This document shows positions 10,803 to 45,855 of a stretch of 64,000 bases of DNA, in pieces; the first letter of the stretch is position 1; each line of letters starts with the position of its first letter. This stretch comes from Candidatus Komeilibacteria bacterium (GTDB lineage Bacteria; Patescibacteriota; Patescibacteriia; UBA1558), in assembly GCA_048538275.1 (NCBI GenBank), contig JBLYPW010000002.1:2111-66110 (forward strand), read 5' to 3'. The notes below the pieces were generated by a model. It saw only the letters and a list, made by a program, of their open reading frames with translations. It was not told the DNA's origin and searched no databases. Position numbers and translations under genes: made by a program.

Positions 10803-11312
10803 ATGTCTGATGATATTCGTCGGCCGCTCCGCCAAACAATGGAGCGACCGGTTAGCAAAATGATAGACAAGCCATCACGCCCATGGCAGAGTTTGTTTTT
10901 CTCTAGCGTTTGGTTGGGTAGAATGCTTTTATTGGCGGTGATTATTATTTTATTAGCTTGGTGGTGGCAAGACCAAAGGAGTTCGGTGGATTATTTGGCG
11001 GAGTATAATATTCAGTCAGAATGGCAAGCGGTCTTTTTGGATAATGGTCAGACTTATTTTGGTCAAGTGAAGAATGTTAATAGCCAGACTTTGTGGTTGG
11101 ATAATGTTTATTATCTTCAGTCGCAAACGCCTTTACAATCAGGGCCTCAGCCCAAAGAAGGAGAAATAGCGATTGTCAAACTGGGCAAAGAAATTCATGG
11201 CCCGGAGGCGCAGATGATTATCCCGACCGTTGGTATTAGTTATGTAGAGAATTTGAAGGACACCTCTGCAATCGTGAGGGCGATCAAACAGGCAACCCCC
11301 GGCGTTGAATAA
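10803..11312 (+). CDS. Small membrane-anchored protein of 169 aa, paralog of 45856-46398. Its C-terminus (ATPGVE) is encoded by a REP 15-mer.
   Basis: One N-terminal TM segment. The W-Q-A-V-F-L-x-N-G-Q-x-Y-F-G ... N-x-Y-Y-L-Q ... VKLG-x-E-x-HGP block is shared with the protein at 45856. The last codons overlap caacccccggcgttg at 11293-11307. Confidence 0.6.
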   Translation: MSDDIRRPLRQTMERPVSKMIDKPSRPWQSLFFSSVWLGRMLLLAVIIILLAWWWQDQRSSVDYLAEYNIQSEWQAVFLDNGQTYFGQVKNVNSQTLWLDNVYYLQSQTPLQSGPQPKEGEIAIVKLGKEIHGPEAQMIIPTVGISYVENLKDTSAIVRAIKQATPGVE

Positions 11313-11404
11313 AAAAACATGGTAAAAATCAAGGAAAAATTGAAAAATAAAGCCAACCCCCGGCGTTGGCAACCCCCGGCGTTGAATAAAATGTAATTAT
11401 TTAG
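11296..11404 (+). repeat. Duplicated copy of the 85-bp 5' leader cassette of the gene at 14926. It forms a 25-aa decoy ORF at 11327-11404 (MVKIKEKLKNKANPRRWQPPALNKM) and contains two tandem REP 15-mers at 11354-11385.
   Basis: Near-identical to 14900-14985: ggcgttgaataaaaaaacatggtaaaaatcaaggaaaaattgaaaaataaagccaacccccggcgttggcaacccccggcgttg. Confidence 0.7.
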
Positions 11405-11411
11405 TCAATAA

Positions 11412-14400
11412 ATGAAAAAAAGCACAACCTATTATATATCTATATTATTTACTGCCATTATTATTGTGGCGGGTTTAGTTTATCTTTTTCAGGCATATAA
11501 TGTATGGGCATATTTGAATCCTGGCGCTGATCCAATACATTATTGGAATATGGATGAAATGGACTACAATACTTGTCCTAGTGGTGGCGATGTTTGTGAT
11601 ATGACTGGTGTATATAATGGGACAGCTTATGGCAGTATTGGGTGGGTAGGAGAAGATGAGTGCGTTGCTGGCGGTTGTATGTATTTTGACGGAGTGGATG
11701 ATTATGTCAACTTTGGTGATATACCAAGTGTAGAAGGTGATTTGTCTATATCTTTTTGGATACGACCAACAGATATGACTTATCGTCAAAATCCTTTAGG
11801 TAAGGCATATTATGATGAATTTGATTTTACTTTAGAAATAGATGACGGTCTGCAGTATTATCATGGTGAGACATCAAGCTTTTATTATGGTGTTACAACA
11901 GATCCGGAATATTATTTGAGTAATAATCAATGGCAGCACATTGTTGTTACTAGAGACGTGAGCGCACGTACGGGGGTGTATTATGTTAATGGCGCAGCGA
12001 TTAAAACATTTAATTGGGATGCTAGTCGGGATCCAACTGCGGGGGGTGTAAATTTTCAATTTGGTAAGACTTATATTGCGAATGAGTATAAAGGTTATTT
12101 AGATGAAGTAAAAATTTACAATTATCAGAGAAATGCATCCCAGGTGGCTGCTGATTACAATGCCGGCATAGCCGGCCATACTCCTAAAATTGGGTCAGGA
12201 GTTGCTTTAGGATCAAATAATAATGCTGATCCGGGAGTACCTTATGCTTATTGGCAAATGGATGATAGCGCTGTGCCTGGCATAGCTTATGATAGCAGTG
12301 GTAATGGCTTTACTGGAATACCGGCTAATATTTCTTGGGAGCCGGGAAAGAGAGGTAATGCTGCATTATTTAATTCTTCCTCGGATAAAATTACTTTACC
12401 TTATACGTGGCAAGTTACGGATTCTACAAAGCCTTTTGGGTCTAAGAATAGCGACATGTCAATTAGCATGTGGATCTATCCAACCGTTGATAATGCCACC
12501 TGTTCTAATCATAACATCTGTAATATTATGTTTGCTAATGCCGGCACTGCTATAGATGATAATTTTGAAATGGGTTGGTATCAAGATACTGTAAATTTTT
12601 ATATGGAGTTAAGTGGAACAGATTATGAAGTTTTTGTTTCTTCAAATATGATAATACGTGAAAATGCTGAGTGGAGATATATTACCTTGACTAAGTCTTC
12701 AACCGCTGGCGTGAAAGTATATGTGAATGGTATTTTACAAGCCACCTACCCCACTTTAACAGGTACATTTAATGTTAACGGCGTTCAAGGAAATGATTTG
12801 ATGATCGGCCAAACAAATAATACGGGAGTGTATTATAGTGGCTATATTGATGATCTTAGAATTTATGATTATGCTATTGAGGAAAAGCAAATATTAAATG
12901 ATATGTATGCTGCTAAAGGCACGCATCCAATATTGCACTATGCTTTTGAAGAAAATGGTAATACAGCGGCTTCTGATAGCACTCTATCAGCTTTTCAAGG
13001 CACGATAAATGGTTCTCCAAACAGATCGCAGGATGGCGTTTTGGGCAGGGGGTTATATTTTGATGGGTCTGACGATAGAATTGCTATTAGTAATTGGGGT
13101 TATCCTGCGAGCTGGTCTGATTATTTTTCTATTTCAACATGGATAAATGTTCCGGCTTCAGAAACTTGGACCAATGGCTATAAGAGCGCTATTATGGGCA
13201 GAGGGGATGGTGCCGGTTCTCATGGGTTGATAAGACAAACTACCAATAATCAAGTGGCAATGTATGTTAGAGGCGATAATGGTGAAATATATGCGAGCGG
13301 CACTATAACACGGGACAGCTGGCATCATTTAGTGGGAATATGGGACGGGACACAAGTTGCGCTATATATAGATGGGGTATTAGAAAGTCAGACAGGCACA
13401 GCGAGAACTGGTTCGCCTGCTGCGAACACTTGGTATGTCAATGGTCCGGTGACCTTTGGTGGTAATATTGGCCAATATAATGAAGGTGGGCTAGATGAAT
13501 TAAAATTTTATAACTATGCATTAAGTTCTGATGATATTGCCAATGATTTTAATTATGGTTCGGCAGTTGTTTTGGGTGCCGACAAAACTAGTTCATCTTC
13601 TTGGGTTGATGGTGGGTTTGGTGGGGATCCGCTATTAGCTTATTGGAATTTTGAAGAGGGTAGTGGTAGTATAGCACAAGATATAAGCAGTAACGGTTAT
13701 TTGGGTACTTACGTGGGCTCTCCCCAGTATAGCTTGGGTAAGATAGGCTGGGGTTTAGAGTTTGATGGAGGCGATTATATTAATATCGCTGATAATTTAG
13801 GAGATCCAACTGCGATTACTATAGAGCTGTGGTTTAAAAAGTCCAACATCAATGCAGGATCGCAATACATGATGGATGCTAGAAATGGCGGCACTTGGTG
13901 GTGGTTACAGGATTATGTTGCCGGCGTTTGTACAGATAGCAATGGCAATATTTGTTTTGATGCAAGGGCTGAGATTCCATCTTCAGAACTTTCTAATAAT
14001 ACATGGTACCACGTGGCAGTTACTGACGACGCTAGTGCGGTTAAATTATATCTTGATGGCAGGTTGATAGCTACAGGCACTGGTGAAGATCCTGGTTTAG
14101 GGACAAATTTACGAATAGGCACACGATACACTGATGCTAATAGGTTTGTTGGCAGCATGGATGAAATTAAGATATTTAATTATGTTCGTTCTCAAGCACA
14201 AATAGCTTTTGATATGAATGGGGGTAAGCCAACAGCTCATTGGAATTTTGACGAGAATACTGGAACCTCAGCTTATGATAGATATGGTGGCTATACGGGG
14301 ACTTTAACGGGCGATGGTGTAACGTGGGTAGACGGAAAATTTGGTTATGCGCTTAATTTTGCTGGTTCTTCAGATTATATAAATATTGAACCTCTTGATA

Positions 14401-14876: not shown

Positions 14877-14925
14877 CTACTAACAACCCCCGGCGTTGGC
14901 AACCCCCGGCGTTGAATAAAAAAAC

Positions 14926-17900
14926 ATGGTAAAAATCAAGGAAAAATTGAAAAATAAAGCCAACCCCCGGCGTTGGCAACCCCCGGCGTTGGCAACCCCC
15001 GGCGTTGTGGCAAAGGCCGTCATCGCCGCTTTAATAGTGGTTGGTTTTCTTGGTGGTATTACCTGGGCGGCTGGTGGCTGGGGATTTGGTAGTGGCAGCA
15101 GTAGCACGACGGATGTTTCTGTCGGCACCTCAGCCGACAAAGGCTTGATTGGTTATTGGCCATTGGATAGTGCTAGTGAGAAAGTGGGGAGTGAATTGGT
15201 TATGAATGAAGATATGGAGTTAGATAGTAATTGGTCAAGTTATAATTCTCCTACAACTAATGAACAAAGTAATGAACAAGTGTATACTGGAACATATAGT
15301 CGAAAATTTATTGCAGATGCTTTAAACGAAGGTATACGGAGTGAAAATTTTAGTGTTATTGCTGGAAAAAAATATAGAGTGACTGCCTGGATATATTCAG
15401 TGAATAAATCTTGGGCTACTCTACGTGTTAGGCATGGCGACGGCACTGGATTTGCATATAATTATGCTAATACTGTCACTAATGGAGAATGGACTTTAAT
15501 AAAAGCCGATTACACAGAGACTATAAGTGGCTCTAACGCATATATTCATTTTGATAGTGGAGGATATTCTAGTGGCACTTGGTATGTTGACAATGTTAGC
15601 ATTAAAGAAATTAAAACAGCTGACGCAACGCCATACTCTCATCACGGTACTGTTTATGGCGCGACGCAGAATGATGATGATATGACCTTTGATGGTACGG
15701 ATGATTATATTAATGCTGGTACTGCTGATATGAATACTGACGAACTTACAATTTCATTTTGGGTTTATTCTGAAGATGCTGGTGATCAGGATCATCATAT
15801 TATATCAAACGCAGACAATACTGGTTGGTATCAGCCCAATGGTTTTGATATTGGGGATGGCTGGACAGCTGGCTATTATTTTTACTATTCATATATAGGT
15901 AACGCCCATATACAGCAACACCCGTCACATATGATCGGCGTTTGGTCGCATATTACTTTTGTTTATGCTAAAGGAGATTATATGAAGGGTTATATAAATG
16001 GTGATTATTTTGCACAATCAGCTAGCGTGGGCACAGAAACTATTAATGCCGCTAATACTTTATATATCGGCAGAGCTATTCGGTCAGGCAAGTTTAAGGG
16101 AAAGCTCAAGGACGTCCGTATCTACAATCGTGCCTTATCTGACACAGAAGTGGCTAGCTTGTATAATGGTGGTAAAAGTGCCAGTAAAAATTTGGTGATT
16201 GGTAGTAAAAGTAAAGGTTTGGTCGGAGAGTGGAAGCTGGATCAGGCGAGTGAAAAGGTGGGCGATGAAATGCATTCCAATTTTGACATGGAGTCGGGTA
16301 TTACTTCGTGGACATTTGATTCCAAAACAAATGGTTCTAGAGATAGCTATACTGCTGACTTTAAGTTTGGTTTAAAATCAGTTAGAATTAAAAATTCTAC
16401 GGTAGGACCGATTGCTTTTTGGCAAGCTAAGTCCGCTTCGGTGGGTGAGTTGTATAAAGTTGTTGTTTGGGCTAAAAATATAGATTCTCCGACGATTCCG
16501 TATTTTAGTTCCGCCGGCGCTACCTTTGTTAGTGGCGATACTTCTTTTGTTGATATCAGTACGACCGAATGGCAAAAATATGAAGGGATTTTTAAGGCAA
16601 CAGATACAACTATTAATATTTACATCAGAACTGCTGCAAATGCGACCCAGGGTTATTTTTTGGTTGATAATTATTCTTTGAAACAAATATACACTAAAGA
16701 TGCAACACCTTATAGTAATAACGGCGCTATTTACGGCGCTACTTATACTACCGATCGCCAGGGTCAAGCTAATAAGGCGATGAGTTTTGATGGAGTGGAT
16801 GATTATATAAATGCGGGTAATATTTCTCAAACAAATTTTGGTACCGGTGATTTTAGTATCAGCGCTTGGATAAATACTACGGATAGTCAATTTTATATTT
16901 TAGGCAAGCAAACCTGGGGAGTAGCAGAAGGTTTTTTTCTAGGCACAAAAGCTGGATATGATGGTGGGGATGATAATTATTTTTGGTTTGATACTGGTTA
17001 TAGTTCTGCTAATGCTAAAATTTTAACCTCACTAATTAATACTGGACAATGGGTCCATGTAGTTGCGATCAGAAGTAATGGAGTTGGTTATATTTATGTT
17101 AATAATGCTTTGGAAGTTACGGATAGTAGTAATTCCCAGAATGTTGACTCAAATGCTAGTCTGACTATAGGACGCCGGACGGGTAGCGGGTATTATTTGG
17201 ATGGTGATCTAAGCGACGTCCGTATCTACGATCGTGCTTTGTCAGCGGAAGAAATAGCTTCTTTGTATAATTCTTACAATCCAATAATATCTACCGGTAG
17301 TCTGCAAAAGGGTTTGGTTTTGGACATGCCGCTGGATAGTAAGCGGGAAAAGGTGGGTGGTGAAACTATTACTAATGGTGATGCGGAAATAGGCGATGTC
17401 ACGGGTTGGTCTGTCCAAGGGGGCGCGAGTAGAAGTTCTGTTATATCGCAATTACATAGCGGTACATATTCTCTACAGGTTACAAATTCTAATACTTCTG
17501 GGGGCTTACCCTATAATTTCATTTATCAGCAAGTTAATGGATTAACAATTGGAGCTACTTATAGAACTGTGGCTTGGGTTAAGGGAGCTACTAGCTCTGA
17601 CACTGGCTACATTGGTGTGTCGGACGATATTGTACAGGGAGAAGCATCTTATTATGGTTCGGATGGCGGTCCTAATCATTCTGATTGGACAAAATTAAGC
17701 GTTACCTTTGTGCCGGAAGCTACTACAGTTTATGTTCAATTATATTCTAACTCAGGTGCTAATATATCGTATTGGGACGATATTAGTTTAAAAGAAATCC
17801 AAACAGCTGACACTACCACTTATTCAAATCATGGAGTTGTTTATGGCGCAACGCAGAATAGTGATAGCATGAGTTTTGATGGTAGCACTAACTATATTGT

Positions 17901-18378: not shown

Positions 18379-18600
18379 TTGTCTCATTCCCAGTTTCTCT
18401 TGATTCCGCCGTGGGGCGGACGAAGTGGAGAAATCTGTATTTGCCACTATAAAATATGTTCTTTTAATATACCCTTTATTGCTATTAGACTTCTCCGCTC
18501 GTCCGCACTTCGTTTGGACATCGGTCGAAGTGACTGTGAGAATATAGAAGATTGCTTCGTCCGCTTGCAGAGGCGGATCAGAGTATAATTCGTATGGTCC
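18379..18600. repeat. MITE-like palindromic element, family 3, copy 1.
   Basis: The core cttctccgctcgtccgcacttcgtttggacatcggtcgaagtgac and its partial inverse ggcggacgaagtggagaa are related to the copies at 33463-33600, 39345-39540 and 46590-46860. The 69-aa ORF at 18379-18588 lies inside it and is probably spurious. Confidence 0.6.
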
Positions 18601-21600: not shown

Positions 21601-21957
21601 ACTTACACTTTATACAAAGACTCAATCACTAATAAATTCAGTTTTCATGTTAGATTAGATGGAAGTGAAGAAACTCAAAGAAAAGCAGAAGCAAACGATG
21701 TAGTGGATACTGAATGGCACCATGTAGTAGGAACTTATGATGGTTCAATAGTTAAACTATATGTTGATTATATTTTGCAAGATACAATTGATTCTACTAG
21801 TGGAGTTATAGATATTGATAATTCTAATATTTTAGGTATAGGATATAGACCAGTTAATGATGACCAGTTTTGGAATGGTCAAATTAAAGACGTCCGTATC
21901 TACAACCGAGCATTATCTGCCGATGAAGTTAAATTATTATATGATAAAGGGCGTTAA
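18676..21957 (+). CDS. Giant paralog 3 (1,093 aa): TM anchor, Gly-run, CBM4/9-like and LamG-like modules.
   Basis: TM helix LLTSVVVALIVVGFIVSIGLAVGGGGGGG. There are 3 copies of KEIQTADTTPNANHG-T/I-VYGAT linkers. Two near-identical DVRIYNRALSA-x-EVK-x-LYDLGGRQNQ-x-STGSLYKGLVLDMPLNSESEKVGS blocks lie at 19770-19920 and 20851-21000. Confidence 0.8.
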   Translation: MLNKIKNFIIHNLLTSVVVALIVVGFIVSIGLAVGGGGGGGTITAGDINKGLVFHAPLNSESEKVGSELVTNGGFDSSTGWGAGTAWSIANGVASYDDSGTSILSQNNVFTVGKSYIIKFTISNSSGNGGYIAIYSDASGVVGYTYYTDGTYVVQGTANGTQLRIYGSSGGSSFDIDDVSVKEIQTADTTPNANHGTVYGATQNTDDMSFDGTDDYVDVEDSNILDIQVIDGISISAWIKPVNTTASDTYSSTNPQYIVIKGAAPLNSNYWFRILGQKLNFGWRNSANDGYNTKDMDSHNLTNNEWQHVLVIHDGSDIIFYIDGVEQASSVSSGSMTDESISNSDLLYIGVEFGNSQRYFNGSIKDFRIYNRALSATEVKSLYDLGGRQNQISTGSLYKGLVLDMPLNSESEKVGSNIFTSNNPNFESDTNSPPVYWYNTGTHVATAVVDATSPNGSNVMEIVASGTGSFSSNAVWNGFFKYGRLVSGKSYRLIFYAKSISGSTIISGRFQSISIPNWTITTDWERYEYDFIGNGGTYNELYFLSASGAATFRIDNILVKELQTADTTPNANHGTVYGATQNADTMSFDGDDYVKIDNILLADNFSISFNYTPDTIGSSREIIDIGKNAFTYENFRLGLLSNGGTETVISDTSSTRAFPTSFPAGTFTSGIKKYIAVTYDGTNFRNYADGTLISTSANVSFASELVSTYLFTRNGATNFNDGSLQDVRIYNRALSADEVKQLYDLGGRQNQVSTGSLYKGLVLDMPLNSESEKVGSELVTNGDIASSGVTDNWTAVNSTLTAENNGLKVSDNGSYSSAYQLINTVVGKKYRLTFDAEEVSGGFFVVYTSSTAPDGTSYGDTGRYVSSSTGRQVIDFISTTTTLHIIFASQSTDYAIYNNISFREIQTADTTPNANHGIVHGATVGSDSTSFDGTDDYIQIPSNSNLDLQYVSVSAWVKYATGGIIIVNKYNTQPGTYTLYKDSITNKFSFHVRLDGSEETQRKAEANDVVDTEWHHVVGTYDGSIVKLYVDYILQDTIDSTSGVIDIDNSNILGIGYRPVNDDQFWNGQIKDVRIYNRALSADEVKLLYDKGR

Positions 21958-24900
21958 ATTAAATAAAATCAACCCCCGGCGTTGGCAACCCCCGGCGTTG
22001 ATTATAATAACAGCGATTATTATTGTAATTGGCCTTATTTATATCTTTAATAAACCAGAACCAGCCACTGCTTGGTTCAATGACGGCTGGCATTATCGGC
22101 AGACAGTAGCTGTTACTAATGCTGGTACTGAACAAACAGACTTTCAGATTAAGATAACTTTAGATACAGCCGCATTGGTTACGGCAGGCAAAATGCAATC
22201 AGATTGTGATGATATAAGACTTACAGACATTAATGGTAATGTATTATCTCATTGGATAGAAGATACCACTTGCAACACCGCGGCAACAGAGATTTGGACA
22301 AAGCTAGCATCAATTCCCACAACAGCAATTAATTTATATTTATATTATGGTAATCCTAGTGTTAATAGTGTTGAGGTGGGACAGTGTGATATGTTTGTAT
22401 GTTGTGGCTCAGATGTAGGTGGATCTTATCATAACAATCCAGGTTATGGATTAACATATAATACAACCGAAGATTATACTTTACAATTCGTTACATTGGA
22501 TTCAGAAATAGCTCAGGATATTGATGTTTATGTTCACGATGGGCCGGCGCCTACAGATACAATTTTATATACAAAATCTATATCTTTATCTTCTGGATTA
22601 AATACAGATGTTAATATTGAGATACCATTAGGTATAGGCACTAATTATTTATTAAGACCAGATAATACTAGGGATAATTTAAAAAGAACGCCTGACGACT
22701 CAAATTTACCATACGTTTGTGAAGGAATTACCATTAATGGTGGTAATCAAGGGTATTCTACATATTATTATTATTTTTATAATTGGAAATTAAGAAAACA
22801 TACTACCACCGAGCCAGTTGTTGGTGATCCATCTTCTGAAGAAAAAGGCCCGGGACCAATTGCTTATTGGAAATTTGATGAGGGTTATGGAATAACCGCA
22901 CAAGATTCTACCACGGGTAATAATGACGGCACCATAACCGGTGCCACTTGGCAAGCAGAAGACATGTGCGTGAGTGGGAAGTGCTTGAGTTTCAACGGCA
23001 GTAGTTATTTTGTTAAGGTTTCCGATAATAGTATTTTAAAACCCACAGATGTTATCACCGTAGGGGCGTGGTTTAATAGTAATGACATTACTACGTCCGG
23101 TCAACGCATAGTTTCTAAAACCGAAGGCAGCGGGTATCAATTAAGTTTAAACGAAAATAGCGCCTGTCCTACCAATACATTGTGTTTTTTAGCCCATGTT
23201 GCTGGAGGATATAGATCAGCTAGTTACGCCTCTTCTAATATAGAAAGCAATAAATGGTATTATCTCGTAGGCACATTTGATGGCACCAATGGTTATCTTT
23301 ATTTGAATGGTGAACAGGTTGGTAGTTTTTCTCAGTCTGGAACAATAGCTACCAGTACAGCTCCCGTATGTTTAGGAGCAGAGGCAACATCAACCTCTTG
23401 TAGTACGGGTTATTTTAATGGTCGGATGGATGGTGTAGGAATTTATAATTACGCTCGCACCGCCGCTCAAATAAAAGCAGATTATCTAGCTGGACAATCA
23501 GGCGCACCATCTGGTGCCAGCGCGTCTTTGGGTAGTAGGCAACAAGATCAGAGTGAAGGTTTGGTAGGTTATTGGAAGATGGATGATGCGGGTGTAGATG
23601 CTGAAGGTGAAACCATCAGTGACAGTTCCGGTAACGGTAATAGCGGCACGCTTTATGGTGATAATGCTACCGGTGATAATGGTACTGGCATGGATTGCAC
23701 AGCTAGCGGTAAATATGGCACGGGTTGTAGTTTTGATGGAGTGGATGATTATGTTTCAATCATAGATAATGGTGATTTGGATTTAGAAACAGCATGGACT
23801 GTCGCGACTTGGGTAAAACGAGAAGGCACTTGCGATAGTGGCGGTTATTCTAAAATAGTTTCAAAATGGGAAAATTATTTTTTAGCTATAGATTGTAATT
23901 TAGGTGATAATGTTTTGTATGGCTGTGTGGGTGATGGCTCTGGTCATACTTGTAATAATTCAAGGGATACGACTTTACCTCTTAATGAATGGCATTTTTT
24001 GACTTTTACATACAGCGAAGCCTTAGGTAAAGCCGATCTTTATATGGATACTCAATTAATACATAGCGTTGATGCTACTAGTACTGCTAGTAGCAATTAT
24101 GATTTAAATTTTGGTACGCCACATTCTGGTGTTACCAATCAGTATTTTCAAGGCAAAATAGATAATGTAAAAATATACAATACCGCCCGTACAGCCGAGC
24201 AGATCATGCGCGATTATAAAACCGGACCACCGCCGGTGGCTTACTATGATTTTGAGGAAAAATCTACATCTATAGCATATGACAAATCAACCTATGGTTA
24301 TAACCTTACAGCCGTTGGACTGGACAGTACAAATATAGTTTTAGGAAAAATTGGCAGTGCCTATAAATATGGGACGTGGACTGAAAGACACACTGGTTCA
24401 AGTTTTAATATTTGTAATAACATAACAATGGAAGCGTGGGTTTATCCTTTATCCACTCCATCAAATATGTATACGATTGTGTTAAATAATGGGGCAAATG
24501 CTGCTTATTTGAGCTATGATCCGTCCAATGGCGTAAGTACATATTGGTACAATAAATCTTCTGTAGGTTATCATTCATCTGGATCGTCCACAGTACCTTT
24601 AAATACATGGTCGCATGTAGCAGCTGTTTGGGATAATACTGGGGCTAATCTTTATGTAAATGGGATATTGAAAAATTTTGTATCATCTACAGGAACTTCG
24701 TCGTGTACTGGTGATGGTTTGGTTGTGGGAGCTGAAAATGACGTTAGACAAATGGATGGTTATATTGACGAGGTGAAAATCTACAACTACGCTCGCACCC
24801 CAGAGCAAATTTTACAAGACATGTATGGGGATGAGGACGCGCATCCGATTGCATATTACAAATTTGATGAGGGGTATGGAACATCTCTCAAAGATTCTAT

Positions 24901-26860: not shown

Positions 26861-26864
26861 AATC

Positions 26865-26912
26865 CAACCCCCGGCGTTGCCAACGCCGGGGGTTGACAAC
26901 ACCCGGTGTTGG
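26865..26912. repeat. REP family 1 hairpin (caacccccggcgttg CCAACGCCGGGGGTTG inverted pair) plus the palindrome acaacacccggtgttgg, between paralog 4 and RAYT-A.
   Basis: Perfect inverted repeat of the 15-mer. Second palindrome at 26896-26912. Confidence 0.85.
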
Positions 26913-26962
26913 CGGTAAATTATAGAAAACAGGGTCTATCTAACGATTAACCCTGTATTTTT

Positions 26963-27538
26963 ATGCCTAAAATTGAGCGAAATATTGAACCCGGCTCTAT
27001 TCATCATGTCTATAATCGGTCGGTAGAGAAAAGAACCATATTTTTTATTGACAGAGATTATCAATGGTTTTTAGAAAAAATAGCGTTTTATAAAGTTAAA
27101 TATAAGGTAAAAATCTTAGCTTTTGCGCTTTTGCCTAACCATTGGCATTTGTTAGTGCAGGAACAGGAAGTAGTCCAACCCCCGGCGTTGGCAACGCCGG
27201 GGGTTGTTAGAATGATTGGAGATTTATGCAATGCCTATGTCAAGCGCTTCAACATAGCTCATGATCGCTCTGGACCCTTATTCCAGGGCAGATTTAAGTC
27301 AAAAGTGGTTGAAGATGAGCATTATTTGCAGAATCTTATTAATTATATCAATCTCAATCCAGTAAAACATAAAATAGTAAAGAATATTAAAGACTGGGAT
27401 TATACGTCACATTGGCACTACTTGGAGAAAGGGAAATTTGCTTTGGTTGATAAGAGTGAGTTTATAGATTTTGCGGTTTATAAGGCTGGCGTGGTTGATT
27501 ATTTACGAAAATTTGAGAATATTGAGGAAGAATTTTAA
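26963..27538 (+). CDS. IS200-like HuH tyrosine transposase, REP-associated (RAYT-A, 191 aa). It carries an in-frame REP hairpin insertion.
   Basis: N-terminus MPKIERNIEPGSIHHVYNR. HuH motif LLPNHWHLLV. C-terminal Y motif HYLQNLINYINLNPVKHKIV. REP caacccccggcgttggcaacgccgggggttg at 27177-27207 is translated as QPPALATPGVV. REP hairpins flank the gene at 26865-26895 and 27542-27572. Confidence 0.8.
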   Translation: MPKIERNIEPGSIHHVYNRSVEKRTIFFIDRDYQWFLEKIAFYKVKYKVKILAFALLPNHWHLLVQEQEVVQPPALATPGVVRMIGDLCNAYVKRFNIAHDRSGPLFQGRFKSKVVEDEHYLQNLINYINLNPVKHKIVKNIKDWDYTSHWHYLEKGKFALVDKSEFIDFAVYKAGVVDYLRKFENIEEEF

Positions 27539-27541: not shown

Positions 27542-27572
27542 CAACCCCCGGCGTTGCCAACGCCGGGGGTTG
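27542..27572. repeat. REP family 1 hairpin immediately 3' of RAYT-A.
   Basis: caacccccggcgttgccaacgccgggggttg, a perfect inverted pair. Confidence 0.85.
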
Positions 27573-27673
27573 GATTACACAAAATCGTATTTTTCTGTTA
27601 TAATTTAATCGTAAAATTACAAAAAAAGAGGGCCATGTTAAAAGGTTTTTTGACGTGGCTTTTTATAATATAG

Positions 27674-30600
27674 ATGTTGAATATAAAGGAAAAATTTAAA
27701 ATCAACCCCCGGCGTTGGCAACGCCGGGGGTTGGCAACACCCGGTGTTGGAATCCGCATCGCTTCTATTCTTTTTATTGCTATCATTATAGTAGCTGGTT
27801 TAATTTATATATTCAATAAACCTCAATCAGTAGAAGCAACTTGGTGGAACCCCACCTGGAGTTATAGACAAAGCATTGCTGTCACCAATGGCTCAGGCGG
27901 TACTTTAACAGATTTTCAAGTTGAGATATTGCAGAATGTTGATTTGAGTAGCCTTAATACAGCCGGCAAGCTGCAAGCAGATTTGGCTGATTTACGTTTT
28001 ACCGATATAAATCATAGAGTTCTGCCTTATTGGATAGAAGATAATACTATCTCTTCTGTAAATGCTTGGATTAAAATACCATCTATTCCTACAACCGGTA
28101 CTACTATTTATATGTATTATGGGAATTCATCGGCTAGTGATGCGCAGGATGGATTTAATACATTTTTGGCTTTTGATGATTTTGAAGACGGGGATATGAG
28201 TACATGGGAGCATATAGATGCTTGGGGAGATAATCTTGGCACATGGACAGAGTCTGGTGGCGTTATGCGTGCTGATTGTAATACTTTATGGTGCCATGAA
28301 ACTGCCTGGCAACATGTAAATTTTCAAACCGATAATGTTGCTTTAGCTGCCAAACATCGTTGTTTGGGTAATAATTCTGACGGTGAAGGTGGGATAGGTA
28401 TTTCTTTTACAGGCGGATGGGAAAATTATAGCACACAACAAACAATGCTTATCCGTAATGATAATCAAGATATCTGGGCAAGTGGAGGCACCCCTAGTAC
28501 CACCGTGTCGTTTACTAATACATGTAATACATGGTATAAAACCGAAATTAGAGATATTGCTGGCTCTAATGCAACTTTATGGGTGGATGATGTACAAAAA
28601 CATGCCACCACTAATAGTGTTACTACTGTAAACGGTAGGCCAGCTTTATCCCAGTATAAGGGTGATATTGAATACGACTGGGTATATTATAGAAAATTAG
28701 CATCCACTCAGCCTACAGCCGGCAGTCCAGCCACTGAAGAAAACGCCCCCGGCCCAGTGGGTTATTGGAATTTTAATGAGGGATTTGGCACAACAGCTTA
28801 TGATAGTACAGGTTATGGTAATGATGGGACAATTTCAGGGGCAACCTGGGTGCAGAATGGTAAAAGTGGTAGAGCTTTGAGTTTTAACGGGAGTAGTGAT
28901 TATATTATAACTAATAATGATATTGGAATATCAGGAACAGATGAAAGGACAGTTAGTTTATGGGTAAAAACTACATCAGCAAATGTTACTACAAATTCTA
29001 TTATTTTTGGAATGGGCACCGCTGCTGCTAATAATTTATTTGCCATGAGAACTGATTCTACTACTGATACTTGGAGATTTACAGATGCATCAGTTGCAAG
29101 AGAAACAAATGTCTCAACAACTGGTCAGTGGCAACACATAGTAACTATACTTGATTCTAGTCAACAATTAAGCGTTTATATTGATGGAATTATAACAGAT
29201 GTAAATAATATTGATTTGTCATCACAAGATACTACTAATGCTCCTTTCTATATTGGTTCAAGTGTTAATAATACTTTGTATTTTGATGGTCTCATAGACG
29301 AAGTACGCATCTACGACCGTGCCTTGTCAGCCAATGAAGTGAAACAGCTTTATAATCAAAATGCCGGCAGCTTTAATGTCGGGCAGTCTGGTATATCCAC
29401 TTCTTGCGCTGATCAATTGGCAAAAAATCCCGGCTCTAAGTCTGGTGTTTATACTATTGATCCTGGCTATGGAGTTGATCCTTTTGATGTTTATTGTGAT
29501 ATGGAGACTGACGGTGGGGGGTGGACTATGGTGGCATCAAATCATTCTAGTAGTACTTTAATACCCTCTGGCACTGGCAGAAATTCTGCTGAGTATGAGT
29601 TGGATAGGAATGGCAGTTATACTGCGTTAGGGACACCTTCTCCAAATACGGATTATATTATTGGCGCAGCTATTAATATATTGGAATGGGATGAAGCAAG
29701 GATTACTATGTTTGGGTTTGATTCAACTAGTTCATCGTATGTTTATCCCACAAATTTGGGAGATTATGCAGATGTTAAATGGGATGTTCCTGGTTCTGAT
29801 GCCGGACGGTTGGATCAGGCCGTTGCGGCAGCTAGTGTGTCCATATTTAGGAATAATAATTTTGCAAGTTTTCATCCAAGTGTTGCTTATTTCTATGTAG
29901 ATGGAGTACATCATGACTATATGCCAGATAGTGTATATGGCGCTAATGCAAATCAGGCAACAGTTGGAGGTGTTGGTAGAAGTGGCACGACTGTTACCGG
30001 TACATACTTTGGGCATGGTGTAACTGAGGGAAGTTTTGAGGGTTCATATGGCCCAGGAAACACGGCGAGTAAAAATGCCTCTGGGTATGTTACGTGGGTT
30101 AGAAGTAATACTGTGACTAGTTCATCTGGCGTTGCTCTAGACCTCCCCTTTGAAGCCGTATCCGGCTCTACGACTTATGATATTTCTGGTAATGAAAATA
30201 ATGGCACCATTACCGGCGCTACTCACAAAACTTCAGCCAATTGTAAGGTGGGGCGGTGTTTTGAGTTTGATGGGAGTGGTGATACTATAACCATAAGTGA
30301 TAGCACCAGTATTAATGCTATAGGGCAAGCTATGACGCTATCTGCCTGGGTTAAACCATCAGCATTTACAACTAGTTATAGGTCGGGGATTATCACAAGA
30401 CGTAATGGCAATGCAGGTATTGGATTTTATTTGGCCGGTGATTTAGATCCTGCTACATCAGGAACAATGGAGGCTATGATTGGGGGCGGGGCAAATGTTG
30501 CAGCTAATACAGCCTTACCACTAGATGAGTGGTCTTATACAACTATGGTCGCAAGCGGCGACAGTATTTCTTTTTATTTGAATGGAGTAGATGATGGTGG

Positions 30601-33412: not shown

Positions 33413-33434
33413 AGTAACGAAGTTACTAACGGGG
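33405..33434. repeat. Palindrome family 2 (ccccgtaaagtaacgaagttactaacgggg), overlapping the stop codon of paralog 5.
   Basis: Nested inverted repeat with inner stem gtaacgaagttac. Related copies at 39306-39336 and 44821-44935. Confidence 0.75.
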
Positions 33435-33686: not shown

Positions 33687-33806
33687 ATGCTAAAAATATT
33701 AAAAAACTTAATAAAAACGAGCCGGTGGCGCCACCGGCCTCCGGCTCCCGGCCTCCGGCTCCCAGCCTCCGGCCTTAGGCTCGGAGAGCGTTGGAATTAG
33801 TAAATC
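33687..33806. repeat. About 120-bp GC-rich insertion, relative to the paralogous leader at 39540-39590. It has 9-bp direct repeats ATGCTAAAA at both ends and internal cctccggctcc tandem units.
   Basis: Upstream regions 33586-33686 and 39516-39587 align. The second copy runs straight into ATGCTAAAATTAGCC. The first copy duplicates ATGCTAAAA at 33687 and 33807, with ...gccggtggcgccaccggcctccggctcccggcctccggctcccagcctccggcc... in between. Confidence 0.6.
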
Positions 33807-36800
33807 ATGCTAAAATTAGCCAAAAAATTTAAAATCAACCCCCAGCGTTGGCAACCCCCGGCGTTGGGAATATTAATAACAGCGATTATTATTGTATTTG
33901 CCGTGGTTTATTTTCTTCGAACACCCGGTGTTGTACAGGCAGAATGGTGGAATGAGGGCTGGCATTATAGAGATTCATATCCTATTACATACTCATCATC
34001 TGGTTCGGAATTAACAGAATATCAAGTCTTGGTGGAGGATCTGGATACTGCTACTCTAATAGCGGCTGGCAAGATGCAGTCTGATTGCGCGGATATTAGG
34101 TTTACAGATGTTAATAGTACAGTATTGAATTATTCTATTGTCGGCGCTACTTGTAATACCAGCAATACTAAAATATGGGTGAAGATGGAAAGCATCCCGG
34201 CAGGAGGAACAACTTTGTATTTATATTATGGCAATCCAAGTGCTAGTTTTTATCAAAGTGAAGAGAACACATTTAGTTATAGTACAGAAAAAACAGTGGG
34301 ATATGTTTTAAATGACGGGAGTACAGCTTTTGATTTAATTAGTTTGGCAGATGGTAATTCTATAACACACAATAGTACGACTTTAACTTTGAATAAAGGT
34401 GAAAGTAGCGCCCTTACTACCTCTACTTATTTACCAGTAACTGCCAAAAAATTATTTAATATGTCCACTGAGGAGTATGATACTATTGTACCGATTGGTT
34501 GGGCTGGCACGGAGTTTGTTTACCAGAATCGCAACGGGACTTATGAAACAGATTTTGTTATGGTCAGTCCGTGGGGTACGGCTACCGTACAAATATATAT
34601 TGATGGTGTGCAATGTGGTGCTGATAGAACAGTAACTAGCTCTGGTTTAAAGGTGACAGACTGTGGCGGCGCTGCTTCTGATGTGTTTAGGATAGTAAGT
34701 GATATACCTATCATTGTAAATAGGTCTAGCAGTGTAAATGATCCCCACCCTATGCATCCGGCTGATTTAGGACCTTGGTATGGTTGGGATTCAAGCGGCG
34801 ATTATATTGCCGCTGGCCCTAGTGGAGCCAGTTATCAGTGGATAGATAGTGGCATGAGCTCTGTTTCCTCAAGTAGTTTAGGTGCAAATGCGGGGACTAC
34901 TTTAGAAGCTGGTGGTGGCAGTTATTATTCTGGTGATACTATTAAGGTTTGGTCAACAGATTATGTTATGGGCGCGTCTACAGCTGGTGATGCTGACGGA
35001 GGGGATGCTACTACTTATTTGCCAAACTGGGAATTTGGCACCATAACCGGGTCGCCTTATGCAACGGATTTTGTGGCAGTACTATCTGATCAGGCAGTCA
35101 CTTGTACAACTTATAATAATAGCGGTGCCACCGTAAATACACAGCAATTATCTAGTACCAATACACAGGTTTATGAACTGGGTGGAACAAACTTTGGTAT
35201 AGGAAGTACTAGTGAATATATTAGTGGTGCTTGGTATGTAGAATGTGATGGGCCAGCTATGTTTGTATCACAAAATGTTGATGATGAACAAAATATGTGG
35301 TCTTGGCCTATGATGCGGCAGTTTTCTTATCCTACACCAGCGGTTGGTTCGGCTAGTGGTGAGGAAAAAGGAGAAGCACCAATATTGTATTGGAAGTTTG
35401 ATGAAGGTGTAGATAATTCTTGTTCTGGTGGCGGCGATGTGTGTGATTCCACAACCACCGGCGATCACAGGAACTTAGTGGGAGAACCAGATTGGCAGAG
35501 TGAAGACATGTGCGTGTCTGGTAAATGTTTATACTTTGACGGTACTAATGATTATATAGATTTAGGTTTTGGCAGCGGTCGTAATTTAGCTACCGATCCA
35601 TTATCAATAAGTATGTGGGTTAGACCAACTAGTTCTAGTGAAGATAATATGTACATAGCAACAGTGAATGGTACCAATCAGAGATTTTATTTTGCTATAC
35701 AAAATGGTTTATGGGATATGGGAATTCAAAATTCAACTTGGAGTCAAGGGGGTGCTGTTACTAGTGCAGACCTTAACGAATGGACGCATATAGCTATTGT
35801 CGCTAATGGTTCAGCAGTTAGGTTATATGTTAATGGTAATTATAGTTTTCAGAAAACATATACTTCGTATGCATTAGCTGGTAATATTGCCATTGCCAGC
35901 CAAGGCCCTGCAGGTGGTTATAAATGGCGAGGCTCCATAGATGATGTTAAAATTTATAATTATGCTCGTACAGACGATCAGATTAAAGCCGACTACTTAG
36001 CCGGCTTATCTGGCTCTTCGTCTGGTGTTGGCGCGTCTTTGGGCAGTAGGCAACAAGATCAGAGTGAAGGGCTGGTTGGTTATTGGCAGATGGATGATGC
36101 GGGTGTAGATGCTGAAGGTGAAACCATCAGTGATAGTTCCGGTAACGGCAACAGCGGCACGCTTTATGGTGATAATGCTACCGGTGATAATGGTACTGGT
36201 ATGGATTGTACCGTTACCGGTAAATATGGTACGGGTTGTAGTTTTGACGGGGTGGATGATTATGTTCTGAGTAGTTCCAATATCCCCGCTATGTCAAATT
36301 TTACGATATCAGTATGGCTACAGTGGGATGATTATGGCACTTCAAATACTCAATTTGTCACTGGAGGTGCTCAGGAGCAGTTTGAAATTCAAACCGGTGG
36401 AGGCAGCGGAACAAACGGTTTACGTTTTATACCCAATACTCACGACGCATCTACGTTAGATGTTGCTAATGCAATTCCAGATGCAAACTGGCATCATTAT
36501 GCAGTTGTATATACCAACAATGATCAAGTACTTGCATATAGAGACGGAGACGAAATTGGAAATAAGAGTCACTCGGTAAGTAGTAGTACTACAGCAAGTC
36601 AATTCAATATTGGAAGAAGAAGCAATAATAGTTATTTTTTTGATGGCAAAATAGATAATGTAAAAATATACAATACCGCCCGTACAGCCGAGCAGATAAT
36701 GAGGGATTATAAAACTGGACCATCGCCGGTGGCTTATTATGATTTTGAAGAACAATCCACTAGCATAGCCTATGACAGATCAGGCACTGGTGTTAATTTA

Positions 36801-39272: not shown

Positions 39273-39305
39273 TTATTTAATAAGCAGGTGATGAACCCCG
39301 TAAAG

Positions 39306-39540
39306 TAACGAAGTTACTAATGGGGGTGAGGGATAATGGTCATAACAAATCAATATACAATACTCCGTCACTTCGACCGATGTCCAAACGCAGTGCGGAC
39401 GAGTGGAGAAGTCTATAGAGTAGCCGTGTGATGAGAGACTTCTCCACTCGCTTTCGCTCGATCGAAGTGACGGATGGGTTATGATGACTCGGTCGAAGTG
39501 ACGAGGAGTATGGTTACTAGGGGTGGTAGAATTAAAAAGC
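39306..39540. repeat. Palindrome family 2 copy (39306-39336) followed by MITE-like family 3 copy 3 (39345-39540).
   Basis: ccccgtaaagtaacgaagttactaatggggg, then ccgtcacttcgaccgatgtccaaacgcagtgcggacgagtggagaagtctatagagtagccgtgtgatgagagacttctccactcgctttcgctcgatcgaagtgac. Confidence 0.7.
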
Positions 39541-39587
39541 CGTTCGGAGGAAGCTGCTTCCGACGAACGTGTTGATGAGGTAAAATT

Positions 39588-42500
39588 ATGCTAAAATTAG
39601 CCAAAAAATTTAAAATCAACCCCCGGCGTTGGCAACCCCCGGCGTTGATTATAATAACAGCGATTATTATTGTATTTGCTGTGGTTTATTTTCTCCGAAC
39701 ACCCGGTGTTGTACAGGCAGAATGGTGGAATGATGGGTGGCATTATCGGCAGACAATTTCTTTAACAAATTCAGGTGCGGCACAAACCAATACGCAGGTA
39801 AAAATACTTAGTGCAGAAGACTTAAGTTCTTTAGTAACAGCTGGCAAGCTGCAATCCGACCTTGACGACCTTAGGTTTACTGATGTTAATGGTAATATTC
39901 TTAAACATTGGATAGAAGATTCTACTAATTCAAGTGTAGATATTTGGGCCTTTATAGATTCTGTATCAGCATCTGGCGCTACTATCTATATGTATTATGG
40001 CAATCCTTCTGCTAGTGCTGATATAGTTGCTTTAGGCACGGCTGCATATCCGGGGATATCTTGTAAATCTGTATTACTGAGTGGTATTACTGCGGATGGT
40101 ATATATTATATTGATCCTACCGGACAAGAAACTACAGATAAGCTTCAAGCTTACTGTGATATGAACACTAGTAGTGGTGGCTGGACTTTGATTTTTCAAA
40201 GAAGAGGTGGTGAGAGTTATAATAATGCAGAATCTTGTGGCTCAAATCTTAATTCTTTTTTAAGAGCTAGCTGCGGGTCATTAACCTCTTTAAACTATGG
40301 AGATTCATATAGTATGGATATAGATTATGCGCCGATTGCTAATGAATACATGTTTAGACAATATGATTCCAACATGACTTTTGATAGTGGCGATGCTTTT
40401 ATTATTAATTCTGACAATTTATTATTTCCTAATATTACCACTAGTTTAAGTAATATTGCTGTGAACGCAATTTGTGATTATAATAATGCGAACTGCGATA
40501 CTACGGATACTTATTTTAAATATACTGGCGCCGGATATTTTAGCAGTACGTATTGTAATAATGGTTATACTACAGGGTATGGAGGTAATTATGGATATTG
40601 TCAGAATGGCATTTCAACAACTTACTACTCAAATGGACTTTTTGGTAATAGATTGGCGTATGATGAAACAAAACTATGGGCACACAATAATGGATCTGAT
40701 GAGTATATGGAAAGGGTTTTTGTGCGTGAATCTACTATTTCAACCACTGGCCACACAGTTACAGCAAGCACCCCCTCCTCCGAAGAAAAAGGTCCTGGCC
40801 CGATAGCCTATTGGAAATTTGATGAAGGTTATGGAACTACTGCCTATGATAGTAGTAGCAATAATAACAACGGTTCTATTTCTGGTGCTGCATGGCAGAC
40901 GGAAGATATGTGTGTGACTGGAAAATGTTTATTATATAACGGTACAGAATATGTAGGTTCTTTTAGTGATAATTTAAGTATGGGGTCAGAAGATTTTACA
41001 GTTTCAGCTTGGTTTAAAACAAATAGTGTTGTCACTTATGGTCAGTGGATTGTTGGTAATAAAGGTACTAGCACTAGTAATGATACAGGCTTTGAGTTAA
41101 TAATGGAGGGTGGTAGGCCTGGTATTTTTATTGCAGATGGTTCTAATAATATTAAATATCAGACTGCCAATTCATATGCGGATAATACTTGGCATTTTAT
41201 AACTGCTACGGTTAGTAGGGGTAGTAGCATTAAGCTTTATGTGGATGGCAAATTTATTTCAGAAAGGAGTGAAACGTTAGCGGGTAGTATTAATGTAAGT
41301 TATGGTTTATCTGTTGGTTTAAGACCTGGCGGAGGAAGTGAATTTAATGGTTTCATCGACGAAGTTAAAATTTACCCCTACGCCCGCACCGCTACTCAAA
41401 TCAAAGCCGATTATTTAGCGGGCCAAGTTGGCGTTGCTGAGGGCACAACCGCTGGTTTTGGTTCAGCAACCACTGGCAAGTCTTTATCAGATGGTCTGGT
41501 TGGTTATTGGAAGATGGATGAGGCAAGTTGGAATGGAACATCTGGAGAAGTTATAGACAGCTCTGGTAGTGGTAATAATGGTACGGCAGGAAACGAAGCA
41601 TCAATAACAGGTGGAAAGTTTGGTAATGGAGGTACTTTTGATGGAAGTAATGATTATATATCAATACCTGACAGCTCAGCTGATTTGAGTGGTGATTTTT
41701 CTGTTTCTATGTGGGTTCATCCCAATGACAATAGTCAAAATCCAAGATGGTTTGGTCTTGTGGATGGGTCAAATACTTTAGCAGTGGGGTACATGGATGA
41801 TGATACAGTCTATTTTAGATTTGGTGGTGATTCTATAATAACTGATTCAACTCTAACTTACGGAAACTGGTATTATGTGACTTTTGTTTATCAATCCAAC
41901 GCAAAGCAAATATATATAAACGGAGAAATAATGAATACAAGTTCAGGAGGCATTACTGGTGATTCAACATTATCTGCTATAGGTGCAGGTTATGCAACAA
42001 CAAGCTACACTGCTGATGGAGAAATTGACGAAGTAAGATTATATGAACGTGCCCTATCAGCCAAAGAAGTTCGTGATTTATACAATTGGGCGCCCGGGCC
42101 AGTTGCCTATTATAATTTTGATGAAAAAACAGGCACCACGGCTTATGATAAATCAGGCAATGGAAATAATGGCACTTTAACCAATATGGATGCAGCAACG
42201 GACTGGGTATCTGGTAAATATGGCAGTGCTTTAGATTTTGATGGAGTTAATGATTATGTCAACATACCCGATCCTGGAGCAAATTCTGTATTTGATGTTA
42301 CGCAAAATCTTACAATTTCCATGTGGATGAATAAAGCGGTGGATAGCGCCCACGGTAATTTGATAGAAAAGGGAGGTTCTTGGTGGATTCATCACGATTC
42401 TGCTTTTGAAGGGTATGCTGGCAATGGCATTCAGGGCGATGCTTTTCATGGTATTCCAGAATGGAATTATGATTTAGCTGAGAATACTTGGTATTATGTG

Positions 42501-44798: not shown

Positions 44799-44820
44799 TT
44801 ATTTAATAAGTAGGTGATGA

Positions 44821-44935
44821 ATCCTGTAAAGTAGCGAAGCTACTAACGGGATGAACCCTGTAAAGCAGTGAAGCTACTAACGGGGTGAACCCTGTAAAGT
44901 AGTGAAGCTACTAACAGGGTGAACCACGGCGCGGT
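44821..44935. repeat. Three tandem copies of a ~36-bp unit from palindrome family 2 (ccctgtaaagtagtgaagctactaacggggtgaa), immediately 3' of the minus-strand RAYT-B.
   Basis: Visible direct repeats. Each carries the inner hairpin gtagYgaagctac. Confidence 0.8.
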
Positions 44936-44941
44936 TTCTTT

Positions 44942-45619
44942 TTAAAATTTATTATTAATATTATTTCTATCTTGCGCCCAATTTGCAGGATTATTTTTGA
45001 TATATTCCCTGATTCTATCTAAATCATTATCATCTCTAATAATGTGTTCGTAATAATTGGATTGCCAGGCAAACCCCTGTAAACCAATATCATGAATGCG
45101 TTTGGTACATGCCGATTTGAATGAACGAACAATATTACCCAACGACGTTTTATTTAACATGGGATTGTATTTTCCGGTAATGCCACCCGCCATTTTGGCA
45201 CCCACCGCCATTTTGGCACCCACCGCCGTTTTGGCACCCACCGCCATTTTGGCACCCACCGCCATTTTGGTACCCACCGCCGTAGAGACGCGATTAATCG
45301 CGTCTCTACGGCGGTGGGTTGGTTCATTCAAATCGGCATTAATGACAAATATGACATGAATATGGTTAGGCATGACCATATATTCATCCAATGAAATATT
45401 ATTAAAATGTTTATTCATATTTGATAAATTTTGTTTTATTATCTCACCGTATTTATTTAATATCATTTGATCATGAATTACCTGACCAAAATACTCAATT
45501 CTATTTTTAGTACAAATGGTCACAAAATAATTTCCCGGTTGAGAATAATCATAATCTAATATCCTATTGGATGTGAGCCTATATTTTTCTTGGTATAATT
45601 TTGGGTTATATTGGGGCAT
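44942..45619 (-). CDS. RAYT-B (225 aa), an IS200-like/RAYT-type Y1 HuH transposase on the minus strand. An 18-bp microsatellite (AVGAKM x5) and a 44-bp perfect palindrome are inserted in frame.
   Basis: HuH motif MVMPNHIHVIF. C-terminal block GFAWQSNYYEHIIRDDNDLDRIREYIKNNPANW, which I recall as typical of TnpA_REP. Tandem ggcacccaccgccatttt units at ~45183-45290. Palindrome ccaccgccgtagagacgcgattaatcgcgtctctacggcggtgg at ~45282-45328. Confidence 0.8.
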   Translation of the reverse strand: MPQYNPKLYQEKYRLTSNRILDYDYSQPGNYFVTICTKNRIEYFGQVIHDQMILNKYGEIIKQNLSNMNKHFNNISLDEYMVMPNHIHVIFVINADLNEPTHRRRDAINRVSTAVGTKMAVGAKMAVGAKTAVGAKMAVGAKMAGGITGKYNPMLNKTSLGNIVRSFKSACTKRIHDIGLQGFAWQSNYYEHIIRDDNDLDRIREYIKNNPANWAQDRNNINNKF

Positions 45620-45855
45620 AATAAAAAAGGGTTAGTATTGAAACCGACCCTGTTTACCCCGTTTAACGTGGTTTGCCACATTTGATGAGGTTTGTCTATT
45701 GTGATTTATAGGTTTAGTTTATACTTTCAGTTATTTTTGTCAAAGCTTTTACTCGCCGGGGGTTGGAACATTATCCCCAGTTGAAGGTTTTATAAAATTG
45801 TTGTATAATACAGCTACAAATTGAGGGCTCAATTTATTATTAAAAAATTGTTAAT

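Follow-up and report, generated by a model that had tools for sequence, protein, structure and literature searches.

What is a short, GC-rich repeat doing inside the coding 5' ends of giant surface-protein genes, and to which element does it belong? This question is raised by a 64,000-nucleotide stretch of a Candidatus Komeilibacteria genome of the candidate phyla radiation (CPR; contig JBLYPW010000002.1, positions 2,111 to 66,110; hereafter the window), in which seven paralogs (P1 to P7) encode giant LamG/DUF2341 proteins and a gene named here RAYT-A encodes a Y1 transposase of the histidine-hydrophobic-histidine (HUH) type. An earlier note on this DNA had described the repeat as a 15-mer resembling the repetitive extragenic palindromic (REP) elements that accompany REP-associated tyrosine transposases (RAYTs). 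We favor, with a probability of about 0.65, the reading that the repeat belongs to RAYT-A as its cognate REP-type element, that it is translated as filler, and that it marks the breakpoints of duplications and losses.

The proposed 15-mer, AACCCCCGGCGTTGG, occurs in 11 exact copies and in 24 copies with at most 2 mismatches across the 64 kb (0.00 and 0.04 expected by chance), and all of the sites listed in the earlier note are present, with coordinates off by 1-2 nt at most. The repeat is therefore borne out but its length is not, as site-by-site reading gives a real period of 16 nt with CAACCCCCGGCGTTGG as the unit. A second unit type, CAACACCCGGTGTTGG (the variant unit), was found alongside the major one. 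Units are arranged either as direct dimers and trimers (seven direct arrays) or as inverted pairs (four, at 26866, 27177, 27543, and 27704), and the 24 copies form 14 clusters, all at 3-46 kb of the window. Approximately 10 of these 14 clusters overlap long open reading frames (ORFs) or annotated proteins, such that within the window the repeat lacks the extragenic placement that defines a REP. Because 16 leaves a remainder of 1 when divided by 3, consecutive units are read as NPRRW, QPPAL, and ATPGV; the 16-nt period is thus the cause of the frame change already noticed in the earlier note, and the reading of the same repeat DNA in different frames places the repetition at the DNA level, as had been claimed. 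The absence of stop codons from all six frames of the unit also holds, for both the tandem and the inverted arrangement, but the assertion that this is unusual does not: in a window of 40% GC the lack of stops in a short GC-rich unit is expected from composition, with 61% of its nucleotide shuffles being equally stop-free in all six frames, and the notion that stop-freeness is special was dropped. When folded as single-stranded DNA (ssDNA), an inverted pair reached -20.3 kcal/mol (z = -6.3) and the variant unit -3.8 kcal/mol, whereas the major unit reached -0.6 kcal/mol, no better than its shuffles, and direct dimers and trimers showed no significant structure. Good folding is therefore limited to inverted pairs and the variant unit, and the idea that a single unit forms a hairpin was abandoned for the major unit. 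An Rfam search of the window returned no matches.

Sequence comparison assigns the repeat to RAYT-A, a domesticated Y1 (HUH) transposase of this CPR genome. RAYT-A matches Pfam Y1_Tnp (PF01797) at 28 bits (cut-off 23) and shows 100% identity to the Ca. Komeilibacteria protein MFW0837852.1 (NCBI), the proteins of the window being identical to NCBI MFW0837847-55. Its HUH motif (N59-H60-x-H62, NHWH) and Tyr128 (YINLNPVKH) are invariant in 14 homologues and align to DYIYINPVKH of 4ER8, the Escherichia coli RAYT bound to a REP hairpin, which is the closest PDB entry by both sequence and predicted fold (Foldseek E = 9.5e-10, TMt 0.73; E ~5e-6 and TMt ~0.6 for the ISDra2 and IS608 TnpA proteins). Inverted pairs flank the gene (26866-26894 and 27543-27571, -20.3 kcal/mol each), and a further inverted pair is translated within it as QPPALATPGV (27177-27205), both as the earlier note had stated. 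In the AF2 model (mean pLDDT 85.8), this internal pair corresponds to a surface loop, residues 67-79, leading from the HUH strand to the next helix; the usual loop of the wider family comprises 18-19 residues, and a minority of members have an expanded one that often contains (T/N)PGV-type peptides. A limited literature search found no description of a RAYT-internal repeat copy. Upstream of RAYT-A, TTGACA arises at the 3' end of the last unit and TAAATT stands beyond a gap of 17 nt, a promoter-like arrangement (26893-26921) in which the repeat may contribute the -35 box for transcription of the transposase gene. As a side observation, an upstream unit whose 3' end plus ACA makes TTGACA, with a -10-like hexamer 16-17 nt on, is present in the window, in L004 (~118-150), and in L010, L011, and L012.

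For comparison, we used loci with RAYTs that are 39-66% identical to RAYT-A, taken from ENA, JGI, and GTDB genomes (L001, L003-L008, L009, L010 with two genes, L011, L012, and L013). Every one of these loci has a genome-specific unit with a 13-nt palindromic core and, where tandem, a 16-nt period (for example CGACACCCGGCATC.., CAACCTCGAAGGTTGG, CAACCCGTCGGGTTG, AACGTCCGACGTT, CGACCTCGCAGGTCG, CCACCCCACGGGTT, and AACCCCGCGGGTT), and in each the unit both adjoins the RAYT gene and sits inside it, 25-60 nt past the HUH codons. At the internal site of RAYT-A, the repeat of the respective genome is present in all nine loci whose RAYT is at least 39% identical; the internal unit leaves the RAYT ORF intact, and its frame and peptide vary by locus. 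Across 36 units from 9 loci, 84.7% of cells pair under 6-bp hairpin symmetry compared with 72.7 +/- 1.6 in shuffles, and 35 two-sided changes were counted compared with 13 in shuffles; none of 500 shuffles exceeded the real units, and slid controls gave 22-43%. The units start with (C)AAC and end with GTT(G), A3 and T13 are invariant in 36 of 36, and no terminal GTAG or CGTC is present. Taken together, with copies that flank and sit in RAYT-A and nine related loci that are alike, the earlier claim of a RAYT-associated, REP-type repeat stands, and on the strength of these alignments the internal copy is a feature of the RAYT-A clade. A wider generalization, that an internal hairpin is common to all RAYTs, was rejected, as a stem of at least 8 bp was present in the loop in 7 of 92 RAYT-like ORFs. 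In L005, the central part of a PrmC methyltransferase gene contains three tandem units (2292-2336, 48 nt) in frame, which encode ATFEVANLRGCQPSRL directly before ILDIGCG; therefore, such repeats can be coding. Separately, a more distant CPR contig, L095, holds two Y1_Tnp genes (3955-4704 and 15567-16349), each flanked by its own palindromic repeat, and one of these ORFs contains an internal repeat copy upstream of the HUH codons.

The copies in the window, together with RAYT-A, are the following.

11291-11396, + strand: single unit closing the small protein, followed by a decoy leader mini-ORF (11319-11396) with a direct dimer.
14884-14991, + strand: direct dimer past the P1 stop, together with copy two (14898-14991) of a 94-nt module.
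14926-15008, + strand: P2 leader (12 codons) and direct trimer in frame, MVKIKEKLKNKA-NPRRWQPPALATPGV; the PGAP protein MFW0837849.1 begins at the 14926 ATG.
21941-22001, + strand: putative P4 leader and direct dimer in frame; the 3' end of P3 runs into the leader, and the start given here is tentative.
26865-26912, + strand: inverted pair and variant unit between the P4 stop and RAYT-A.
26963-27538, + strand: RAYT-A (191 aa), REP-associated Y1 HUH transposase (Pfam Y1_Tnp).
27176-27206, + strand: inverted pair within RAYT-A, read as QPPALATPGV.
27542-27572, + strand: inverted pair 4 nt past the RAYT-A stop; the YraN-ComM difference from L001 has its junction here.
27674-27750, + strand: P5 leader (10 codons), inverted pair, and variant unit in frame, MLNIKEKFKI-NPRRWQRRGLATPGVG-transmembrane segment; the PGAP protein MFW0837853.1 begins at the 27674 ATG.
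33807-33867, + strand: P6 leader and direct dimer in frame, NPQRWQPPAL.
33920-33932, + strand: variant unit AACACCCGGTGTT directly past the P6 membrane anchor, encoding TPGV.
39588-39648, + strand: P7 leader and direct dimer in frame, with GAGG 7 nt before the ATG.
39698-39710, + strand: variant unit AACACCCGGTGTT past the P7 membrane anchor.
45752-45764, - strand: degenerate single unit, 11/13 bases, intergenic.

An array lies in frame in five paralogs, 10-12 codons past the ATG (P2 14926, P4 21941, P5 27674, P6 33807, P7 39588). The earlier count of six out of seven had included a terminated mini-ORF upstream of P1, which has its own start and is preceded by this 26-codon decoy leader with its dimer; P3 has a similar leader, MLNKIKNF, without the repeat. 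The peptide NPRRWQPPAL, previously given for the paralog 5' ends, is correct only in part: P6 has NPQRWQPPAL, and P5 reads NPRRWQRRGL because its second unit is inverted. Likewise, the site at 14884-14914, formerly placed at a paralog 5' coding end, belongs to the P1-P2 spacer, 8 nt past the P1 stop, and the half-site at 45754-45766 corresponds to the degenerate unit at 45752-45764, where only 11 of 13 bases match. The small protein (10803-11312) does end in the repeat, its terminal residues ...KQATPGVE being derived from a unit. Two further observations were made in the course of this survey. A second decoy leader (33687-33800, MLKILKNLIKT..., GAGG 7 nt upstream) enters a different GC-rich repeat (CCGGCCTCCGGCTCC...) and terminates 7 nt ahead of the P6 leader ATG, and a perfect 19-nt palindrome of the variant unit, GGCAACACCGGGTGTTGCC, encodes ATPGVA at 3215-3239, deep in a 2714-aa ORF without a Pfam match, where it may be an embedded unit or may have arisen by chance.

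The repeats at the paralog 5' ends are probably translated, as the following comparisons indicate. The leaders are homologous among paralogs (MLNIKEKFKI, MLKLAKKFKI, MVKIKEKLKNKA), and the P5 orthologue of L001 has the leader MLKILKKLKL, three units of its own genome (NTRHRRYPASAIPGI), and the anchor ILTAIIIVAGLLYIFNKP, with a promoter-like site and 5' region common with the window. The gene frame is the only open frame in six of six tails, and distant DUF2341 homologues have Lys/Arg-rich tails ahead of the anchor; in L095 and L092, tails with GC-rich palindromes are open for 66 and 86 codons, which shuffles match in 0.3% and 0.6% of cases, respectively. Starts in this genome follow AT-rich DNA, as do the leader ATGs, and the PGAP start is the leader ATG for P2, P5, P6, and P7. 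Shine-Dalgarno sequences precede approximately 3 of 25 starts, which makes a test of start sites by this signal uninformative. The region before the P5 leader was also recorded in its own right: a promoter-like TG-TATAAT (27576-27604) and a hairpin-containing 5' region occupy 27576-27673 in the window and 4761-4860 in L001.

Several points weigh against the assignment of the repeat to RAYT-A as translated, REP-type filler. The RAYT-REP link is one of association, the major unit is a poor hairpin, unlike classical REPs, and a search with the exact dimer pattern gave no matches in GTDB representative genomes and JGI metagenomes. An in-frame TTG or GTG closes every array, and a start there would make the repeat part of the 5' untranslated region (UTR); a protein look-up with four candidate starts of P4 (21857, 21923, 21941, and TTG 21998) matched none of them to the annotated one; and the leader copies at 11319-11396 and 33687-33800 are terminated mini-ORFs, such that leader-plus-repeat is not always fused to a gene. 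One could thus hold that the arrays are ordinary extragenic REPs in 5' UTRs, with true starts at the TTG or GTG codons of their 3' edges and with long ORFs that are artefacts of a stop-free repeat and a chance upstream ATG. Besides the terminal TTG/GTG codons and the two unfused decoy leaders, this account is favored by Di Nocera et al. (2013; PMC3733652), who concluded for other bacteria that many REPs at N-termini do not code and are really located upstream of the true start, and by L009, where repeats occupy an open frame ahead of a real CysRS-like start. We nevertheless consider it rather unlikely, as the leaders are homologous among the paralogs and the L001 orthologue and always in frame, a TTG start would leave the anchors of P4, P6, and P7 without a charged tail, unlike all homologues, and the alternative starts would lie in GC-rich repeat DNA whereas the starts of this genome follow AT-rich DNA.

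If the arrays are translated, it may still be asked whether the product matters. The earlier note had offered, as one of two possibilities, domestication into a conserved signal-anchor leader; neither this nor the idea of a conserved peptide survives comparison with L001, which has its own repeat at the orthologous position and there encodes another peptide, NTRHRRYPASAIPGI, and domestication is further weakened by the lack of the repeat in P1 and P3 and by the varying number and orientation of units. Because the orthologous site encodes a different peptide wherever the genome's repeat differs, the repeat-coded peptide is, as far as these alignments can tell, a passenger and not selected; in the same vein, the small protein ends in ...ATPGVE in the window and in ...ATPTSGPRP in the close strain L089. 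That the two Arg residues added to the cytoplasmic tail fit the positive-inside rule is what can be said for a selected NPRRWQPPAL, whether as a conserved part of the signal anchor or as a domesticated leader, but with a different peptide at the same site in L001, deviating versions in P5 and P6, none in P1 and P3, and the same DNA read in other frames in RAYT-A and the small protein, we find this scarcely credible. Alternatively, the arrays could be a phase-variation switch: a 16-nt unit gained or lost between leader and anchor would change the frame, and individual surface paralogs would be turned on or off as in contingency loci. The unit length is indeed no multiple of 3, the arrays separate the start codon of surface-protein genes from the gene body, and the paralogs have 2 or 3 units, all now in frame. 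Yet the arrays have only 2-3 units, some of them inverted, the one locus that could be compared between strains has 2 units in both, two samples (L001 and L002) are identical, and the repeat is also found in RAYT-A and at the 3' ends of genes, places in which a switch would be pointless; phase variation therefore appears quite improbable. A search with the five concatenated N-termini returned distant homologues only; strain-level variants of the 5' ends of the paralogs were not among them.

The other possibility raised in the earlier note was that the repeats act as shared recombination sites, and here the evidence extends what was claimed: the duplicated leader of 85 bp is in fact longer, with 11291-11384 identical to 14898-14991 over 94 nt (100% identity), and this module, a strain-level indel, and a 2-kb difference are all bounded by units. 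The 94-nt module consists of a unit, a spacer, a leader, and two units, and its two copies bracket P1. Among close strains the spacer between the small protein and P1 exists as three alleles with otherwise identical flanks: strains L090 and L091 keep the module with a second unit of the variant type, and in strain L089 the module is missing, with the break inside a unit, and the single unit is split by a different GC-rich element. That element (L089 584-645) was seen to be related to the repeat of the second decoy leader (33687-33800). In L001, a 2-kb YraN-ComM segment lies between the post-RAYT repeats and a unit at the ComM stop; this segment is absent from the window, where the junction is the repeat past RAYT-A. 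Since YraN, DprA, and ComM are found at this position in L095 as well, the comparison suggests a deletion in the window lineage. The gene order of L095 (RAYT - YraN - DprA - ComM - DUF2341 giant protein) was also observed to resemble that of L001. A role of the repeat as a boundary of rearrangements is thus supported by three independent comparisons, and we infer recombination as the mechanism.

The reading that we favor, a RAYT-A repeat translated as filler, may be put as follows. The family shares one design, namely a 13-nt (quasi-)palindromic core, AAC...GTT ends, and 16-nt spacing in direct tandems or inverted pairs, and copies that lie in permissive coding DNA, or are carried into it by recombination, would simply be translated. 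In the five paralogs, the array would fall between a Lys-rich leader and the membrane anchor, that is, in a cytoplasmic tail presumed to tolerate Pro/Gly/Arg-rich filler; in RAYT-A it would be accommodated in the surface loop past the HUH strand, and at gene 3' ends it would supply the last codons. Its spread among paralogs would be mainly by gene duplication and by repeat-to-repeat recombination or conversion, with arrays acting as breakpoints of duplication and deletion, and we infer that mobility of the repeat depends on the RAYT. A more ambitious version, in which the RAYT-A clade keeps the internal copy for a function (such as self-limiting cleavage, hairpin-based autoregulation, or service as a master copy that keeps the dispersed repeats uniform) and the same-strand arrays at the paralog 5' ends are cassette boundaries that the transposase cuts and rejoins as ssDNA, seems to us improbable. 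Were it true, giant surface-protein genes in a reduced episymbiont genome would be duplicated, deleted, and re-headed in an integron-like manner. Neither phase variation nor integron-like cassette shuffling has support in the present comparisons.

Among known systems, the REP/RAYT pairs (REPtrons) of Escherichia, Pseudomonas, and Stenotrophomonas, to which 4ER8 belongs, are alike in having a small Y1 HUH gene flanked by a short GC-rich palindromic repeat that is dispersed nearby, a lineage-specific repeat matching its transposase, strong hairpins from inverted pairs, and repeats just past stop codons. Their unit is 20-40 nt compared with 13-16 nt here, and the REP superfamilies described in PMC3733652 bear a GTAG or CGTC head that is lacking here. 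In a REPIN, two inverted REPs form the replicating unit; the window holds four inverted pairs next to seven direct arrays. Conversely, only here do we see direct tandems at a fixed 16-nt period, a major unit that is an imperfect palindrome, ORF overlap for most clusters of the window, a copy within the transposase ORF, and a CPR host; a limited literature search found no paper describing REP/RAYT in CPR bacteria. The insertion sequences of the IS200/IS605 group (TnpA Y1, subterminal hairpins) share the transposase fold and hairpin-forming repeats on both sides of the gene, whereas RAYT-A is apparently fixed, with neighbors conserved between L001 and the window, short repeats are dispersed without the gene, and the fold of RAYT-A is nearer to the RAYT structure than to IS608 or ISDra2 TnpA. 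The neighbors common to L001 are a hint of vertical inheritance.

Repeats inside genes are themselves not new, contrary to what the earlier note implied: intragenic REPs, many at ORF N-termini, have been reported (PMC3733652), as have in-frame Rickettsia palindromic elements (RPEs; PMC10969869). In both, palindromic repeats lie in frame in real genes, add short extra peptides, and provide terminal codons or stops from repeat ends. RPEs are ~150 bp with a conserved peptide per family, whereas the 16-nt units here are read in all three frames, and the sites here, cytoplasmic tails of surface-protein paralogs and the transposase's own loop, differ from those of intragenic REPs and RPEs. The translated repeat is therefore a new instance and not a new principle, although the CPR host, the 16-nt tandem design, the RAYT-internal copy of the local family, and the leader-anchor position in tandem paralogs were not found described in a limited literature search.

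Phase-variable tracts in the leader-coding regions of surface proteins, such as the CTCTT repeats of Neisseria opa genes, also place a repeat that is no multiple of three between the start codon and the mature surface protein. The tracts here have only 2-3 units, showed no variation in copy number (one comparable locus), and belong to a dispersed transposase-associated element.

The window contains three Y1_Tnp genes of different types, and it contains other repeat families. RAYT-B, the second Y1_Tnp gene (44942-45619, - strand), has different repeats in the same post-HUH loop (45187-45330), namely a palindrome with a 22-bp stem and a GTAG head (..CCGTAGAGACGCGATTAATCGCGTCTCTACGG..) and five 18-nt tandem units, read as ..THRRRDAINRVSTAVGTKMAVGAKMAVGAK..; no further copies of these were found in the window. 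RAYT-C (57592-58023, 143 aa) is 44% identical to RAYT-A, is truncated after the Tyr motif, and has a loop of similar length, with no recognisable repeat in the loop or flanking the gene. A hairpin repeat family with a GTAG-type core, CCCGTAAAGTARCGAAGYTACTAACGGG, is represented once past each of the P5 and P6 stops (33406-33433 and 39297-39324) and by three tandem copies past the P7 stop (44823-44918), and long composite intergenic repeats (..CTTCGACCGATGTCCAAACGCAGTGCGGACGAGTGGAGAAGTCT..) occupy the P5/P6 (33440-33680) and P6/P7 (39330-39580) spacers and, inverted, the P2/P3 spacer (18400-18560).

For the biology of these organisms, our analysis points to REP/RAYT systems in the ultra-small genomes of CPR bacteria, which have little intergenic space and in which repeats would spill into permissive coding DNA. 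Repeat-coded peptides (NPRRWQPPAL, ATPGV, PTSKVG) thereby enter protein databases, and N-terminal starts near them need care. Identical arrays of 32-48 nt at the heads of tandem paralogs offer substrates for recombination, and the three repeat-bounded rearrangements attest to their past use as breakpoints. Finally, a clade of transposases that repeatedly carries a repeat of its own local family in one surface loop provides a lead on how RAYT and REP stay matched.

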